Shown piece after piece: positions 18,667 to 34,053 of a stretch of 64,000 bases of DNA. Made by a program: the position numbers and the translations under genes. Source of the DNA: a virus; the IMG/VR virus record IMGVR_UViG_3300029850_000008; one strand, written 5' to 3'. How positions within the stretch are numbered: position 1 is the stretch's first letter; each line of letters begins with the position of its first letter. The notes beneath the pieces are model-generated. The model searched no databases. It saw nothing but the letters and a program-made list of their open reading frames with translations, and had not been told where the DNA came from.

Positions 18667-20421
18667 ATGAGTAATATATACCAGTTAAGAGAACTACTTA
18701 GAACACAGACAATTTATGATTTGCCGTTACGAGTTGCATACTATGCAAGAGTCAGCACAGATCATGATGAACAGAAAACATCAATCAAGAACCAGGATGA
18801 TTATTTTAAGGAATTGATAAAATCAAAGCCGAACTGGAAATTTATGGGAGGCTATATTGATGAGGGGATTTCTGGAATTGCCGTAAAAAATCGTGAAGAT
18901 TTTTTGAGGATGATTGATGATGCTAAGAATGGAAAGATTGATTTGATACTGACAAAAGAAATTTCCAGATTCGCTAGGAATACACTAGATAGCATCAAAT
19001 ACACCCGTGAACTTTTGGCATGTGGTGTATGTGTATGGTTTATGAATGATGGAATCAATACGATTGATGAAGACAGTGAGTTAAGATTGACTATTATGGC
19101 AGCTATGGCACAGGACGAAATCAGAAAGATGTCTTCCAGGATTAAATTCGGTCAGGCTCAGTCAATAAAAAATGGCGTAGTAATGGGAAATTCAAGATTG
19201 TATGGTTATGACAAAAAAGATGGAAAACTGACAATCAATGAAGCTGAAGCCGAAATGGTTCGATTCATTTTTGAAAGTTATGCATCTGGCAAATGGACAA
19301 CACCACAGATTGAACGATACCTATATGAAAAAGGGTACAGAAACTATAATGGAGGTAAAATCAACCGTGGAGTTATCAAAAATATCATAAAGAATCCAAA
19401 GTACAAAGGTTATTATGCTGGTGGAAAAGTAAAAGTTATTGATATGTTTACAAAAAAACAGATGTTTCTTCCAAAAGACCAATGGGTTTATTACAAGGAT
19501 GATGGATCAACGGTTCCGCAAATCATAGATGAAAAGACTTGGGAAGATGCAAATTATTATATGAAGAGCCGTGGTGACAATATAAGAAGTCACAGAACGG
19601 TGTTTAAGTATGGTAATGTGTTTACTGGAAAGGTAATTTGTGGGATAGATGGTGCTTCGTATTGGCTACGTGAACACAAGATACGTGGAAAAGAAAGTGA
19701 TCCAAGATGGGTCTGTAGTCATAAAATCAAAAATGGAGCAAATTCTTGTCTATCGGTTCCTGTCAGAGAAAGCGACTTGAAACAAATGGTTGCATCAGCA
19801 ATCAGTCAAGCAGCTGGAAACTCTAAAGATGTTATTGATTCATATATGAATTATTACTTAAAAGCCATTGATGATTCAAAAGAAAAAGAGGGAGAAATAG
19901 CAGTTTTAAGAAAAAATATTGAATCCACAAAATTGAAGATGGAGAAAATCCTGGATTACAATTTGAACGGATCAATATCTGATGATGAATTCTTAAAAAG
20001 AAACGCTGCGTATAAAAAAGAGATTGAAAACGCAGAAGAGAAAATTCTAAAATTGTCTAAAAAACCGGAAGAGCCGGATTCTATTGCAAGGAAAATCGAA
20101 CAGATAAGGGAATACTTGGCGAACACAGAAATTGTTTCTGCTGATGACATAACTAAACAAATTGTCGAAAAATTAATTGAAAAGATAATTATATTACCAG
20201 AAGAGGAAAATGGTATAAAAGTCATCAAGTCAGAAATATACCTTATAAATAAGGAACTGTATAAGTTTTGTAAGGATATGGGGACAAAAAATAGTTGTTC
20301 AGATAACGTAACTTTGATCATGTTCCCTAAACAACGCATGGAAATTACTAATGAAAATGCGCATTGTGTGAACCAGTATAAAAGATTTTCAATAGAATTT
20401 TCTCTCTTTGTAAGATTTTAA
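18667..20421 (+). CDS. Large serine recombinase (integrase)
   Basis: YARVSTDHDEQKTSIKNQ catalytic Ser region, resolvase + recombinase + zinc-ribbon + coiled-coil length (584 aa). Confidence 0.9.
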   Translation: MSNIYQLRELLRTQTIYDLPLRVAYYARVSTDHDEQKTSIKNQDDYFKELIKSKPNWKFMGGYIDEGISGIAVKNREDFLRMIDDAKNGKIDLILTKEISRFARNTLDSIKYTRELLACGVCVWFMNDGINTIDEDSELRLTIMAAMAQDEIRKMSSRIKFGQAQSIKNGVVMGNSRLYGYDKKDGKLTINEAEAEMVRFIFESYASGKWTTPQIERYLYEKGYRNYNGGKINRGVIKNIIKNPKYKGYYAGGKVKVIDMFTKKQMFLPKDQWVYYKDDGSTVPQIIDEKTWEDANYYMKSRGDNIRSHRTVFKYGNVFTGKVICGIDGASYWLREHKIRGKESDPRWVCSHKIKNGANSCLSVPVRESDLKQMVASAISQAAGNSKDVIDSYMNYYLKAIDDSKEKEGEIAVLRKNIESTKLKMEKILDYNLNGSISDDEFLKRNAAYKKEIENAEEKILKLSKKPEEPDSIARKIEQIREYLANTEIVSADDITKQIVEKLIEKIIILPEEENGIKVIKSEIYLINKELYKFCKDMGTKNSCSDNVTLIMFPKQRMEITNENAHCVNQYKRFSIEFSLFVRF

Positions 20422-20574
20422 ACTAACAAAAGATGAAAAAAGGGCAGAACCTACCAAATAAAATTGCCACGGTGAAGAACAAGTTCATCGTGGCTTTGAT
20501 TATAAGCTATTCTAATGTTTAAGTCAATATTGCAAGAAATAATTGTCTGAATTTTTCAGAATTGTTTTTTTCGG

Positions 20575-20800
20575 AATACTAATTGGAAATTTTTTGATAC
20601 CCCCCCTGGGTCTGGTTTTCTACTGGAAATTCCATTTTCAATCTTCTCTAAATTCTCTTCTGAAATTCTAAGAATTTTTTTCAAAAATTTTTTCTCGCCA
20701 GACCATTCGGAATTTTTTTGATACCCCCCCTACCCTCTATTTTGGAGCCGAAATTTCGATTTTCAATTTCTCGAAAAACGCTTCAAAAATCCCAGGCAGA
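20575..20800. repeat. Two degenerate ~124-bp direct repeats each containing TTTTTTGATACCCCCCCT
   Basis: C7 tracts at 20600-20606 and 20724-20730; following ~60 nt align (GAAATT.C.ATTTTCAAT.T.CTC). Confidence 0.7.
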
Positions 20801-20959
20801 TTTTGTTCAGATCCAATGGCAGACCTCACCAGAGCGATTTTGACGGCTTTTGTGGCTGGAGTATATGAAAGTCCTGCTGAAAACCTGGAAACGCCTAAAT
20901 GGGGCTATAAACGTGCCTATTAATTAGATTACATCGTACCACAAATAAACTCAATATAC

Positions 20960-21000
20960 AAGTGTAAACACAAATAGAGGGGCGTTATTATCCCCTCTAT
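20960..21000 (-). terminator. Intrinsic terminator of the minus-strand operon
   Basis: Minus RNA AUAGAGGGG-loop-CCCCUCUAU followed by UUUGUGUUU. Confidence 0.7.
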
Positions 21001-21200
21001 TATTCATAAAAGCCCCATGCTTTGTATTGCTTTTTCAATACTTCCAAAGCAGAATTTTTACTGAGAAACTCAGCTCTAGCCGTTTCTCTTGTATATTTCT
21101 TGGCACTATACCAGGCGAAACCATTGATCACATACCAGGAATCCCCGTGATCATCGGTTTCCAGCTCAATACTATAAACCATCTTTTTCTTACGTGGCAT
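21000..21200 (-). CDS. Hypothetical protein (66 aa)
   Basis: AAGGAGG RBS upstream of ATG 21200. Confidence 0.6.
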   Translation of the reverse strand: MPRKKKMVYSIELETDDHGDSWYVINGFAWYSAKKYTRETARAEFLSKNSALEVLKKQYKAWGFYE

Positions 21201-21234
21201 GGCTTGACCTCCTTATTCTTTTTTTCTGGATATG

Positions 21235-21432
21235 CTAAAAAATCCCGGATATACCGCCGGGGCGGTGCCCTGTTATGGCCTTGGACATCGGCTACAGTGC
21301 TGGCTTTTTCGGCTCCCAGTCAACGCCGCTTTTGCCTCCCTTCGCGATCCGGGCATTAAAAGCGGATAAAGCCCGGAGAGAAACCCAGCGGCGGACTGAA
21401 CCGCCCACGGCTTAACCGTCACAGGGTAGGTT
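21235..21432 (-). ncRNA. GC-rich structured leader/ncRNA ending in an intrinsic terminator
   Basis: Strong GC excess relative to surroundings; multiple stems (CCCUGU/ACAGGG, GGCGG/CCGCC, CCGGGC/GCCCGG, CCGCUUUU/AAAAGCGG, GCUGG/CCAGC); 3' CCCGG-loop-CCGGG + AUUUUUU. Confidence 0.45.
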
Positions 21433-21495
21433 TTATAAGAGGCTCAAGCTATAACCTCCGATAAATGACAAAACGGCAATAAGAACGTAATACAT
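21433..21495 (-). CDS. 20-codon hydrophobic mini-ORF MYYVLIAVLSFIGGYSLSLL
   Basis: AAAGGAGGG RBS 6 nt before the ATG (21495-21493); stop (TAA) at 21435-21433. Confidence 0.35.
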   Translation of the reverse strand: MYYVLIAVLSFIGGYSLSLL

Positions 21496-21510
21496 ATGTT
21501 TCCCTCCTTT

Positions 21511-21771
21511 CTATGCTTGGCAGAAATCGCCCTGCCAGCCTGTTACTAGGATCATTTTCCCGTCATCCCGGCGGTAAACAACGCCGCAGCCGTCCGCCCA
21601 TGTGCTCCATACAAGCCAACCTGGACGGCCTACAGTTTCCTTTTTTCTGGAATCGTACCAGATAAAGGACGGCTTAATACCTTCTTTTTCTTGATCCAGA
21701 GCGTTCTGGATCGCTTGATCTTCCGTGATAATCTGGTTATGATCCTTAAAATGCAAGATATATTTTCTCAT
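21511..21771 (-). CDS. Hypothetical protein (86 aa)
   Basis: ORF with GGAGG RBS. Confidence 0.6.
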   Translation of the reverse strand: MRKYILHFKDHNQIITEDQAIQNALDQEKEGIKPSFIWYDSRKKETVGRPGWLVWSTWADGCGVVYRRDDGKMILVTGWQGDFCQA

Positions 21772-21801: not shown

Positions 21802-21846
21802 AAAAACGCCGCCCGTGGGAATCGAACCAACGAAACTCCAAACGGC
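21802..21846 (-). terminator. Long hairpin + U-run with tRNA T-arm-like core (GGUUCGAUUCC)
   Basis: Minus RNA GCCGUUUG...CGGGCGGC then GUUUUU, directly after the stop of 21847-21996. Confidence 0.5.
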
Positions 21847-21996: not shown

Positions 21997-22014
21997 ATTG
22001 TTCCTTTCTCGCCT

Positions 22015-22070
22015 GTCATCATCAGCGCAACGGGGCGGATCGTTGCGGACGCCCTGGAGGGCGTTTCGAC
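22015..22070 (-). ncRNA. Type II hammerhead ribozyme motif (HH-A)
   Basis: GUC-GAA-[ACGCCC UCCA GGGCGU]-C/[CGCAACG AUCCGCCC CGUUGCG]-CUGAUGA-U-GAC; all core nucleotides present. Confidence 0.75.
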
Positions 22071-22330
22071 TATTTAAGCAGCTTTTCAAATGCTTTTCTC
22101 TTTTTGTAATTTTCAACTTGACTTATACTGGAGTCATCAAAAAGGATCTGGAAACCATCAGAAGCAAGTGCTGCGGCCATTGTGTACGGGTCAATCTTTG
22201 GGAACCTGCAAAGGTATTCGACCACGTTCATTCTTATGTTTTTATCATTTTTCGTTCCGATCTTTTCAAGGTCTCTTTTGTAAACATTAAAAATTCTTTC
22301 CTGTTTCTCTTTCACGGTTTCTTTTATCAT
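22070..22330 (-). CDS. Hypothetical protein (86 aa)
   Basis: ORF flanked by the two hammerhead motifs; stop UAG overlaps HH-A 5' end. Confidence 0.6.
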   Translation of the reverse strand: MIKETVKEKQERIFNVYKRDLEKIGTKNDKNIRMNVVEYLCRFPKIDPYTMAAALASDGFQILFDDSSISQVENYKKRKAFEKLLK

Positions 22331-22357
22331 ATATTTTACGTCCTTTCTTTTTGCCCT

Positions 22358-22412
22358 GTCTCATCGGTGCAGGTGGGGCAGTTCCTACAGACCGCCGGGC
22401 GGCGGTTTCGAC
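22358..22412 (-). ncRNA. Type II hammerhead-like motif (HH-B), core variant CCGAUGA
   Basis: GUC-GAA-[ACCGCC GCCC GGCGGU]-C/[UGUAGG AACUGCCCCA CCUGCA]-CCGAUGA-GAC; same architecture as HH-A with compensatory stem changes. Confidence 0.55.
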
Positions 22413-22415
22413 TAA

Positions 22416-22823: not shown

Positions 22824-23006
22824 ATGGCGATGTCAGAAGAACGAAAAAATTATCTGTATTCTTACAAAAAACAAAGGCTAAAGCGTGTCCCGCTGGATAT
22901 GCAAATAGCGGACTATGAAGCGCTAAAAGCAGCAGCAGATCAAGCCGGGCAAACTGTCAACGGCTTTATTAAACAAGCCATAGCCGAAAAACTGGAGCGG
23001 ATGTAG
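22824..23006 (+). CDS. Ribbon-helix-helix (CopG/Arc-like) regulator
   Basis: ..KRVPLDMQIADYEALKAAADQAGQTVNGFIKQAIAEKLE RHH-type pattern. Confidence 0.55.
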   Translation: MAMSEERKNYLYSYKKQRLKRVPLDMQIADYEALKAAADQAGQTVNGFIKQAIAEKLERM

Positions 23007-33646: not shown

Positions 33647-33718
33647 TGGGCTATCGCCAAGCGGTAAGGCACATGACTTTGACTCATGTATGCGTTGGTT
33701 CGAATCCAACTAGCCCAG
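33647..33718 (+). tRNA. tRNA-Gln (anticodon UUG)
   Basis: Manual cloverleaf: acceptor UGGGCUA/UAGCCCA (U1-A72), D GCC/GGC, anticodon stem CAUGA/UCAUG loop CUUUGAC, T GUUGG-UUCGAAU-CCAAC; no encoded CCA. Confidence 0.85.
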
Positions 33719-33980
33719 CTTGGTAAGATTTATTTACCTTACCAAAATAGCATATCATTTATGCTATTCCTCCTCATTCATATTACCACCTAGCGGAAAG
33801 CTGATAAAAGAACCGTCACAAGGTTCGGGTGGTTTTCTGGTTTGGAAGCCAGGACATGTGCAAAGTTCCGAACTGTTTACCACATCATAGGGATGTTTGC
33901 ATGGCCTTTGTTATGGCTGGTGGATAAGAACCATAACAGTGAAGGGGATTTCTTGCAGAATTCAAATCCCCTTTATCTCA

Positions 33981-34053
33981 GGAGCTTTATTTCAGTTGGT
34001 AGAAAGACCGCCTCATAAGCGGTAAGTCATCGGTTCGAGTCCGGTAGGCTCCA
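33981..34053 (+). tRNA. tRNA with CAU anticodon (Met, or Ile2 if lysidine-modified)
   Basis: Manual cloverleaf: acceptor GGAGCUU/AGGCUCC, D UUUC/GAAA, anticodon stem ACCGC/GCGGU loop CUCAUAA, T AUCGG-UUCGAGU-CCGGU. Confidence 0.8.

Follow-up and report, generated by a model that had tools for sequence, protein, structure and literature searches.

The stretch of viral DNA analysed here, referred to as the window, comprises 64,000 nucleotides (nt) of IMG/VR record IMGVR_UViG_3300029850_000008. Its minus strand carries a module of three parts: a mini-gene, a structured RNA with a U-tract, and the gene g5. The mini-gene is an open reading frame (ORF) of 20 codons, called the mini-ORF below, which is preceded by its own Shine-Dalgarno (SD) sequence. 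The features of the module and its upstream boundary are, in window positions:

21511-21771, minus strand: g4, which ends in TAG.
21502-21510, minus strand: SD sequence of the mini-ORF, AAAGGAGGG, the left boundary of the mobile module.
21433-21495, minus strand: 20-codon hydrophobic mini-gene MYYVLIAVLSFIGGYSLSLL, from ATG at 21495 to TAA at 21433, which appears to be translated.
21435-21449, minus strand: 3' end of the mini-ORF, GCUUGAGCCUCUUAU, invariant in nucleotide sequence and complementary to the g5 ribosome-binding region or, alternatively, to an internal GGAGGY.
21244-21425, minus strand: GC-rich structured RNA domain of ~182 nt, strongly conserved, with its 5' and 3' ends paired around a three-way junction.
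21400-21425, minus strand: 5' strand of the closing helix, which in an alternative fold holds the 5' strand of helix P1 and an ACGG/CCGU hairpin.
21244-21266, minus strand: 3' strand of the closing helix, overlapping both arms of a local 5-base-pair (bp) terminator hairpin (CCCGG at 21257-21261 and CCGGG at 21244-21248).
21349-21376, minus strand: hairpin CCGGGC (21371-21376)/GCCCGG (21349-21354) with a 16-nt loop, the best-supported helix.
21326-21365, minus strand: candidate H-type pseudoknot of the loop segment CCGCUUUU (21358-21365) with AAAAGCGG (21326-21333).
21237-21242, minus strand: U-tract of six U with an A before them, adjoining the 3' side of the closing helix or terminator hairpin.
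21202-21216, minus strand: ribosome-binding region of g5, AUAAGGAGGUCAAGC, with the SD sequence AAGGAGG at 21208-21214.
21000-21200, minus strand: g5, encoding 66 amino acids (aa), with ATG at 21200; the last gene of the module.

A preliminary description of the locus had placed a strong ribosome-binding site (RBS) and a 20-codon ORF directly after the g4 stop codon, and both are found there in the minus-strand reading and the ORF list. The GC-rich segment that it reported to follow is equally evident, as G+C reaches 0.56-0.61 across ~21250-21450 compared with 0.33-0.45 over most of the surrounding sequence; a value of 0.58 is also seen at the 3' end of g4. The boundaries of the module are visible in related loci, which carry handles such as L018. 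The gene upstream of the mini-ORF in L011, L012, L025, and L018 is unrelated to g4, and homology to the window begins exactly at the mini-ORF RBS. Therefore, the RBS, mini-ORF, RNA, U-tract, and g5 travel as a unit. The 3' tail of a type II hammerhead in L018 is itself the mini-ORF RBS; together with the unrelated upstream genes, this indicates that the mini-ORF fills a normal gene slot of the cassette in which it lies. The U-tract is conserved in all copies, with one U fewer in L014.

The locus with 15 kb around it has no blastn match among 50,697 GenBank phages. IMG/VR contains one contig with a 97% variant of the whole region, and it was the only contig recovered when IMG/VR was scanned with each of two core patterns, with a loop/junction pattern, and with the integrase. 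Exact-protein lookups of g5 identify 11 human-gut metagenome loci. A pseudoknot-anchored pattern, used in one scan each of genome and metagenome contigs, retrieves the true homologues L025 and L031 together with seven chance matches. None of the clusters with g4 at intermediate identity (71%, 65%, and 64%) carries the RNA element, which is intact in every contig that has it. Judged from these matches, the element is known from one narrow lineage of human-gut temperate phages that are at least 92% identical. It is single-copy within the 64-kb window and has no significant complementarity to the rest of it. An origin from a mobile element or from the host was rejected, as the element is single-copy, has a constant context, and is absent from 185k species-representative genomes.

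The RNA is under stronger purifying selection than the genes on either side. Its body differs from that of the most diverged copy, L031, at 3 of 183 positions (1.6% divergence). The corresponding numbers are 24 of 201 (11.9%) for g5, where just two changes alter an amino acid, and 8 of 63 for the mini-ORF (RNA versus g5, Fisher p = 7e-5; RNA versus mini-ORF, p = 0.001). Across the variants, nucleotide diversity amounts to 0.013 for the RNA, compared with 0.108 for the mini-ORF and 0.032 for the non-coding DNA that follows g5. The RNA alignment holds eight distinct sequences with a mean column identity of 98%. About 10 of its 183 columns vary, and the conservation reaches predicted loops and linkers.

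The RNA matches no established family, in agreement with the preliminary description, which could not assign it to one. The whole window searched with Rfam 15 (4227 models) at gathering thresholds gives only two tRNAs, and positions 21100-21600 searched at E <= 10 give only two chance-level matches, both outside the element. ARAGORN likewise reports only two tRNAs, both far from the element. Neither RF02276 nor another hammerhead model matches within 21100-21600, and the segment lacks CUGANGA, a part of the hammerhead core CUGANGA...GAAA...UH with its three stems; the search mode used on the element recovers both hammerheads of the cassette. Twister is not matched in 21100-21600 at E <= 10 either. 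A twister-like string noticed by eye in the centre of the element, CCGCUUU-UAA...GCCCGG...GGGAGG...AAAAGCGG, was compared with the definition P1-UAA-P2-GCC...P4 with a UCCCAAGC loop...P2'-GAGGG-P1' and the T1 and T2 pseudoknots. It lacks the P2 5' strand and the L4 CCC/AAGC motifs, and its pieces are arranged otherwise than in the consensus. No non-circular twister permutation has been seen in nature (PMC10085705), and the string is treated as coincidental. A tRNA-like or T-loop reading of GGCGG-UUCAGU-CCGCC was discarded, since the loop has 6 nt and both ARAGORN and Rfam are negative. The segment contains no tandem repeats and resembles neither CRISPR repeats nor tandem antitoxin repeats. A type III toxin-antitoxin (TA) system of the ToxIN kind was rejected because there are no tandem repeats and g5 has no defence or toxin model or fold match; only the order of RNA, terminator, and gene is common to both.

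The segment gives no sign of encoding a protein. A GTG-initiated ORF of 49 aa at 21273-21422 acquires a TAG in L001, L015, L017, L018, L020, and L031. A plus-strand ORF of 45 aa at 21232-21369 has lost its ATG in L011, L021, L025, and L031. The 49-aa, 27-aa, 45-aa, and 46-aa ORFs inside the segment are all broken or deprived of their start in variants, and their substitutions are non-synonymous; changes in the segment are mostly non-synonymous in every frame. No reading frame is maintained, and the decayed coding sequence that the preliminary description had considered is not what the variants indicate. Sequence conservation points to a real, functional, and strongly constrained sense-strand element of no known family.

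The mini-ORF has the signature of a coding gene. It is intact at 20 codons in 13 of 13 copies, which specify seven peptide alleles. Insertions and deletions occur just before its ATG and just after its stop codon, and none inside. The variable sites are distributed 5/2/10 over codon positions 1/2/3, and the pooled ratio of non-synonymous to synonymous polymorphism (pN/pS) is 0.18, with pS = 0.36. Replacements are conservative (V/A, L/I/F, V/I/T, S/A, I/L, and S/C). The peptide is uncharged and has a mean Kyte-Doolittle hydropathy of 1.79. The SD sequence varies among the variants. The mini-ORF evolves as a coding gene and appears to be translated.

A related peptide gene is present in L040-L045, the g4 of which has 71% identity. 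A 25-codon ORF, MLDFFKIMLVFVGGYGLGRWWEFLK, with a strong SD sequence, lies there in the same register as the mini-ORF. The two peptides share M1, L9, F11, G13, G14, Y15, and L17, and the mini-ORF product can be assigned on this resemblance to a small hydrophobic 'GGY' micro-protein family. Three peptide alleles have no Pfam match at E <= 10 and none to Ibs, Fst, or other toxin families. PADLOC gives no match for the peptide, and an IMG/VR scan with the peptide alignment returns only the contig mentioned above. GGY micro-proteins of 20 aa and membrane type are too short for gene callers to find.

The minimum free energy (MFE) fold of the RNA has an energy of -80.1 kcal/mol. It was computed from the window when no variant was yet known, and the RNAalifold consensus is the same fold. 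The fold consists of the closing helix 21400-21425/21244-21266, a 13-bp central helix 21387-21399/21316-21330, a second branch at 21267-21304, and the CCGGGC/GCCCGG hairpin. All 472 of 472 cells are paired across the eight variants, and every variable stem column is compatible with the fold. Two of the three changes in L031, G21374U and C21351A, form a compensatory replacement of G-C by U-A in the CCGGGC/GCCCGG hairpin, with a roughly estimated probability of ~0.005 of arising by chance. In L012, C21352U produces a G-U pair in the same hairpin. The one-sided stem changes C21352U, C21328U, and C21262U, read on the minus-strand RNA, all result in G-U pairs, C21262U within the long-range closing helix, and U21423C, found in L015 and L018, turns U.G into C-G. 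On the plus strand these changes would be C.A mismatches; therefore, the structure belongs to the sense (minus-strand) RNA.

The variants fit this closed long-range fold better than two of the helices proposed in the preliminary description, as far as so few sequence changes can tell. The complementary segments that it listed all exist. The CCGGGC/GCCCGG hairpin gained one compensatory pair and one G-U change. The ACGG/CCGU hairpin has its place in the alternative, P1-containing fold rather than in the closed fold. Helix P1 itself (CCCUGU/ACAGGG), described as closing the domain, is broken by U21423C (cell 14:166), and the GCUGG/CCAGC pairing is broken by C21299A (cell 48:138). The candidate pseudoknot of CCGCUUUU with AAAAGCGG is complementary at 8 of 8 positions and compatible with its one change, C21328U, which occurs in L021 and L025 and keeps a G-U pair; it competes with the stronger 13-bp central helix for five nucleotides, 21326-21330. 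A second hairpin of the element, on the minus strand at 21387-21405, has the sequence GGGCGG-UUCAGU-CCGCC with GGGUUUCUCU after it and was marked as terminator-like. The homologous peptide gene in L040 has a similar plain terminator behind it, GGGCGG-CGAGCAA-CCGCCC-UUUU, so that the hairpin may be a vestige of an ancestral terminator of the mini-gene.

The 3' end of the domain has the layout of an intrinsic terminator. As previously described, it consists of CCCGG-loop-CCGGG followed by AUUUUUU: the GC-rich hairpin CCCGG-N8-CCGGG with A and six U occupies 21237-21261, and the terminator scan picks the same site. The distance given earlier, about 35 nt from the U-tract to the g5 RBS, needs correction, as the U-tract ends 22 nt before the RBS and 36 nt before the g5 ATG. 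The isolated hairpin has an energy of -8.8 kcal/mol. In the context of the transcript, the equilibrium probability of the 5-bp hairpin is ~0.002, because each arm is paired with the domain's 5' end. With the terminator forced, the energy is -76.7 kcal/mol instead of -80.1 kcal/mol, a difference of 3.4 kcal/mol between the two states. In folds of transcript prefixes, the P1-closed state is the MFE structure up to ~175 nt, and the long-range state prevails from 180 nt, once ACCGCCCCGGC has been made. The P1 state of these prefix folds could give rise to the terminator hairpin kinetically. The layout corresponds, in silico, to an aptamer/antiterminator/terminator device with mutually exclusive pairings. 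A consensus scan detects no promoter-like site between the U-tract and g5, and expression of g5 hence depends on read-through.

The mini-ORF and the start of g5 are also complementary to each other. A repeat finder identified 80% complementarity between the last 15 nt of the mini-ORF (21435-21449) and the g5 RBS region (21202-21216), two segments that flank the closed domain. When the full unit is folded, the probability that the g5 SD sequence pairs with the end of the mini-ORF is 0.95 for the window and 0.81-0.97 for five variants. The last five codons of the mini-ORF have 0 of 15 variable sites, as opposed to 17 of 45 in the remainder (p = 0.006), and only 22% of synonymous recodings retain the pairing with the g5 RBS. 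A different pairing, of the mini-ORF SD sequence with the putative anti-SD segment UUUCUCUCC, was rejected, as the SD sequence varies and the anti-SD is invariant.

We tentatively favour, at odds that fall short of even, a role of the RNA as a cis-acting gate between the mini-gene and g5, in which termination would be leaky or conditional and the g5 RBS would be masked through long-range pairing. During synthesis, the RNA would fold into the P1-closed domain, leaving the 5-bp hairpin and U6 free to terminate transcription. At equilibrium, this state would give way to the long-range helix, in which the terminator region pairs with the 5' end of the domain, and read-through into the promoterless g5 would therefore be partial or conditional. 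The closed domain would bring the invariant last 15 nt of the mini-ORF beside the g5 ribosome-binding site, and the two would pair. Because of this pairing, translation of g5 would depend on ribosomes finishing the mini-ORF. We infer the fold switch, termination at the U-tract, and translational coupling from in silico folding.

Several observations weigh against the gate. Masking the 12-25 nt after the stop codon, in imitation of a ribosome, leaves the MFE structure unchanged and does not raise the terminator probability; the calculation covers equilibrium only, and an equilibrium switch operated by the ribosome footprint was rejected on this result. The spacing from the stop codon to the domain varies by 0-3 nt among the variants. 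In four of nine variants, uncompensated changes beside the g5 SD sequence abolish the predicted coupling helix (P 0.01-0.40), and a local hairpin, GGAGGYU/AGCCUCU, offers another explanation for the invariance of the mini-ORF 3' end. The GGY peptide gene of L040-L045 comes last among the ORFs of a cassette of the same type and is followed by a plain terminator, which indicates that the GGY micro-protein family does not need the big RNA. Genes of the g5 family in L034-L038 start 2-16 nt after the preceding gene and have no leader. The folding energy is not significant relative to dinucleotide shuffles (z = -1.33 on the minus strand and -0.83 on the plus strand); the RNA exceeds chance by conservation, not by fold energy. 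A shuffle control of covariation reaches the observed scores in ~60 of 500 trials, leaving only the CCGGGC/GCCCGG hairpin really supported. The power of this test is low, as there are eight distinct sequences with 98% mean column identity from a single lineage at least 92% identical; the BLASTN and covariation check put forward in the preliminary description has accordingly produced one compensatory pair, no GenBank phage match, and underpowered covariation. The conservation over ~180 nt, loops included, exceeds what a simple gate needs and hints at a trans-acting factor or a more elaborate function, which keeps more novel readings in play. The other concern raised at the outset, that the stems might be neither conserved nor covarying in related phages, is answered by the conservation and the compensatory pair. 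An attenuator- or riboswitch-like leader of g5, the first role suggested in the preliminary description, agrees with the mutually exclusive folds in silico and with the missing g5 promoter, and disagrees with the distant g5 genes that have no leader and with the ribosome mask that does not flip the fold.

The proposed gate has partial counterparts among known systems. With attenuators and riboswitch platforms it has in common a hairpin and U-tract whose 5' arm can pair upstream instead, a promoterless downstream gene, and a GC-rich conserved domain; it differs in having no known aptamer, no conserved downstream family, and a terminator hairpin that is strongly disfavoured at equilibrium. The 'Min Jou' interaction between the coat and replicase genes of MS2 is a long-range translational coupling by RNA structure. 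There too, a segment of the upstream ORF is complementary to the downstream RBS, and translating the first ORF would unmask the second. In the module studied here, in contrast, the two segments are separated by a structured domain of ~210 nt and the U-tract, and the pairing is lost without compensation in four of nine variants.

The g5 protein has no Pfam, PHROG, or PADLOC match. Its AlphaFold2 model, with a predicted local distance difference test (pLDDT) score of 76, has a beta3-alpha2 fold, for which a fold search of the PDB gives no match. A word-indexed homologue search returned one cluster. Distant g5 homologues at 34-42% identity constitute a sparse, small phage family. In L033, a 134-nt spacer directly upstream of a distant g5-family gene contains a type-P1 twister at 175-225 (43.6 bits, E = 7e-7), which is under the gathering score because it is without the optional P3. 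A very large and repetitive protein encoded outside the window, P0002 (2680 aa), has seven stretches that match the 66-aa g5 family and only repeat or low-information matches in Pfam. This large surface-type protein may contain the g5 fold as well, as a repeat module.

The module forms the 3' end of a minus-strand cassette of small genes, which adjoins and is convergent with a large serine recombinase (integrase). Three further RNA features were identified in the cassette:

22007-22071, minus strand: type II hammerhead between two small cassette genes (RF02276, 40.2 bits with a gathering score of 37, E = 1.1e-6).
22350-22413, minus strand: second type II hammerhead with the variant core CCGAUGA, C at position 4 (RF02276, 31 bits, E = 2.9e-4, under the gathering score).
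21802-21846, minus strand: tRNA-like acceptor/T-arm minihelix with a GGUUCGAUUCC loop and a U-run, immediately upstream of g4.

The vicinity to hammerheads that had been proposed for the RNA is real, as both lie in the same cassette; the one at 22007-22071 is above the gathering score yet was missed by the whole-window scan with default filters. All related cassettes examined contain hammerheads. Relatives of the minihelix lie next to g4 homologues, often with UUGGAG before them, and their stems differ and stay complementary. They follow g4 in L002-L008 (~3250-3300 in L002 and L004-L008) and L046-L052 (~2790-2835 in L046, L047, and L052). A minihelix-like element in L040 at 1998-2045 has a weak match to the mascRNA-type model of Rfam (E = 0.014). 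The minihelix may be a processing signal of the RNase P/Z type or the remnant of a tRNA attachment site.

Related cassettes carry an ArdA gene upstream of g4 (L047-L051, 1656-2150) and an AcrIC5-like gene directly downstream of it (for example L040, 2874-3080). The unannotated 25-codon GGY peptide gene of L040 (3095-3172) follows the Acr gene. The cassette is probably an early anti-defence island, given the AcrIC5-like gene after g4 and ArdA before it in these relatives. Ribozyme-punctuated cassettes of small genes near prophage integrases were described by Perreault et al. 2011 (PMC3088659). The cassette in the window resembles them in its short genes of unknown or anti-defence (ardA-type) function, the RNA elements between these, and the adjoining integrase, as well as in the two type II hammerheads and, in L033, the twister before the g5 homologue. 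The element itself differs from the RNAs described there, in that it is not a hammerhead, twister, or Rfam ribozyme, is much larger, and ends in a U-tract.

Other parts of the window and its relatives were annotated in passing. The spacer between g4 and the AcrIC5-like gene in L040 (2765-2873) is a GC-rich (0.64) stretch of ~100 nt with the nested hairpins CCGCCG...CCGGG-AGCGAUG-CCCGG-CGGCGG and no Rfam match, and represents another candidate for an unclassified cassette RNA. In L021, an IS605-family TnpB gene (OrfB_IS605/Cas12f-like; 1307-2557) is inserted between g5 and the serine integrase, and the non-coding stretch 20422-20999 hence tolerates insertions. The plus strand encodes at 22824-23006, between two minus-strand gene groups, a 60-aa ribbon-helix-helix-like protein with weak DUF6290/PutA ribbon-helix-helix matches; this protein faces promoter-like sites and might regulate the cassette. 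Genes for tRNA-Gln(UUG) and tRNA-Met(CAU) lie on the plus strand at 33647-33719 and 33981-34053, ~330 nt apart.

It is also possible, although we regard it as doubtful, that the RNA is a putative stable trans-acting or dual-function non-coding RNA. It would constitute the 3' part of the mini-gene transcript and serve as a regulatory RNA, decoy, or anti-defence effector, while g5 would receive leaky read-through. Conservation that extends into predicted loops and linkers would fit such a molecule; its 5' and 3' ends pair, and the U-tract provides a terminator-type 3' end. Moreover, the element is always accompanied by the mini-ORF and is not tied to the g5 family, and in the equivalent slots of relatives the cassette has ArdA and AcrIC5. 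The scans are less favourable to this explanation: they found neither a promoter for the domain nor a 5' processing site, no significant complementarity elsewhere in the window, and no resemblance to CRISPR repeats or tandem antitoxin repeats. RNAIII/hld and SgrS/SgrT are dual-function RNAs that carry a small ORF. They resemble the module in that one transcript has both a short peptide ORF and a structured, conserved non-coding domain, whereas the transcript here is part of an operon and not a stand-alone small RNA gene.

We consider it rather unlikely that the ~182-nt domain is the first of a new class of functional RNAs found specifically in ribozyme-punctuated anti-defence cassettes of phages, whether as a ribozyme, an effector-sensing RNA, or an RNA-based anti-defence agent. 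In that case, a complex tertiary fold or a specific partner in trans would account for its near-total conservation.

A riboswitch-like attenuator that responds to a ligand or protein is improbable. According to this model, stabilization of a P1-closed aptamer would lead to the terminator, and otherwise the long-range helix would act as antiterminator and g5 would be expressed. The three-element layout with mutually exclusive pairings, the 3.4 kcal/mol gap, the GC-rich island in AT-rich DNA, and the strong conservation of unpaired positions are all consistent with it. The uncompensated substitution U21423C in L015 and L018, however, makes P1 weaker and the antiterminator stronger. Genes of the downstream family do not consistently come with the RNA: those in L034-L038 have no leader, and the one in L033 is preceded by a twister instead. 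Rfam contains no matching known aptamer, and one compensatory pair in one phage lineage is unlike an aptamer that covaries across diverse lineages.

Less probable still is a putative new self-cleaving or RNA-processing element, placed in a gene spacer that is elsewhere filled by hammerhead, twister, or tRNA-like elements. The preliminary description had proposed a new ribozyme class, and the surroundings agree with this: two type II hammerheads and the tRNA-like minihelix fill neighbouring spacers, hammerheads are found in all the related cassettes examined, and a twister-P1 precedes the g5-family gene in L033. Self-cleaving ribozymes cluster, and new classes have been found through this clustering (PMC3088659, PMC10085705); very high sequence conservation and the candidate pseudoknot also fit. 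The element itself gives a different picture. No ribozyme model matches it even at E <= 10, its ~182 nt are two to three times the size of small self-cleaving classes, a U-tract terminator is not a ribozyme feature, and the twister resemblance fails on the defining P2 5' strand and L4 CCC/AAGC. Most candidates found by association do not cleave (PMC10085705).

We give no more credence to a locus of the type I TA kind, in which the 20-aa peptide would be a putative membrane toxin and the structured 3' region would control the mRNA or be the target of an antisense RNA. Type I toxin mRNAs such as Ibs/Sib and Fst/RNAII encode hydrophobic peptides of 18-35 aa. The module shares with them a tiny peptide gene, here uncharged, hydrophobic, and under purifying selection, on a highly structured RNA in a mobile accessory region, in this instance of a temperate phage and adjacent to the integrase. 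The module also has several SD-like and anti-SD-like segments that could sequester ribosome-binding sites. The toxin proposed in the preliminary description fares less well in its genetic setting, as the mini-ORF is without a promoter of its own and stands in an operon directly after g4 or a hammerhead. No plus-strand promoter-like site reads into the locus from 20400-21700, although a consensus scan is weak evidence. The SD sequence varies while the putative anti-SD is invariant, neither toxin families nor PADLOC match, and the homologous gene of L040-L045 has only a plain terminator.

Finally, a decayed coding sequence or a DNA site (attP, origin, or protein-binding array) in place of an RNA would suit the repeated GC-rich GGCGG/CCGCC words, the closeness to the serine integrase, and a compensatory change that would also preserve a DNA palindrome, and is nevertheless highly improbable, because the 49-aa GTG ORF gains a TAG in about half of the variants and the plus-strand 45-aa ORF loses its ATG in four, substitutions are not codon-like, the four one-sided stem changes are all compatible with G-U pairing on the minus-strand RNA alone, no contig has a disrupted element, and the 580-bp non-coding stretch directly after int (20422-20999), which takes the IS605/TnpB insertion in L021, is a more usual place for attP.

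The evidence does not show a new ribozyme, riboswitch, or toxin system. The RNA is a genuine unclassified, lineage-restricted structured element beside a genuine micro-gene, in a known kind of ribozyme-rich cassette. The locus adds two objects to such cassettes: a 20-aa micro-protein family that appears to be translated, and an unclassified RNA constrained beyond its neighbouring genes. As relatives carry ArdA and an anti-CRISPR in equivalent positions, an early or anti-defence function can be proposed for both the peptide and the RNA. Should the RNA be merely an elaborate terminator and coupling device, it would be a modest addition to phage gene regulation. If it proves to be a true catalytic, ligand-sensing, or effector RNA, it would be a new class found by guilt-by-association, as were pistol, hatchet, and twister-sister.

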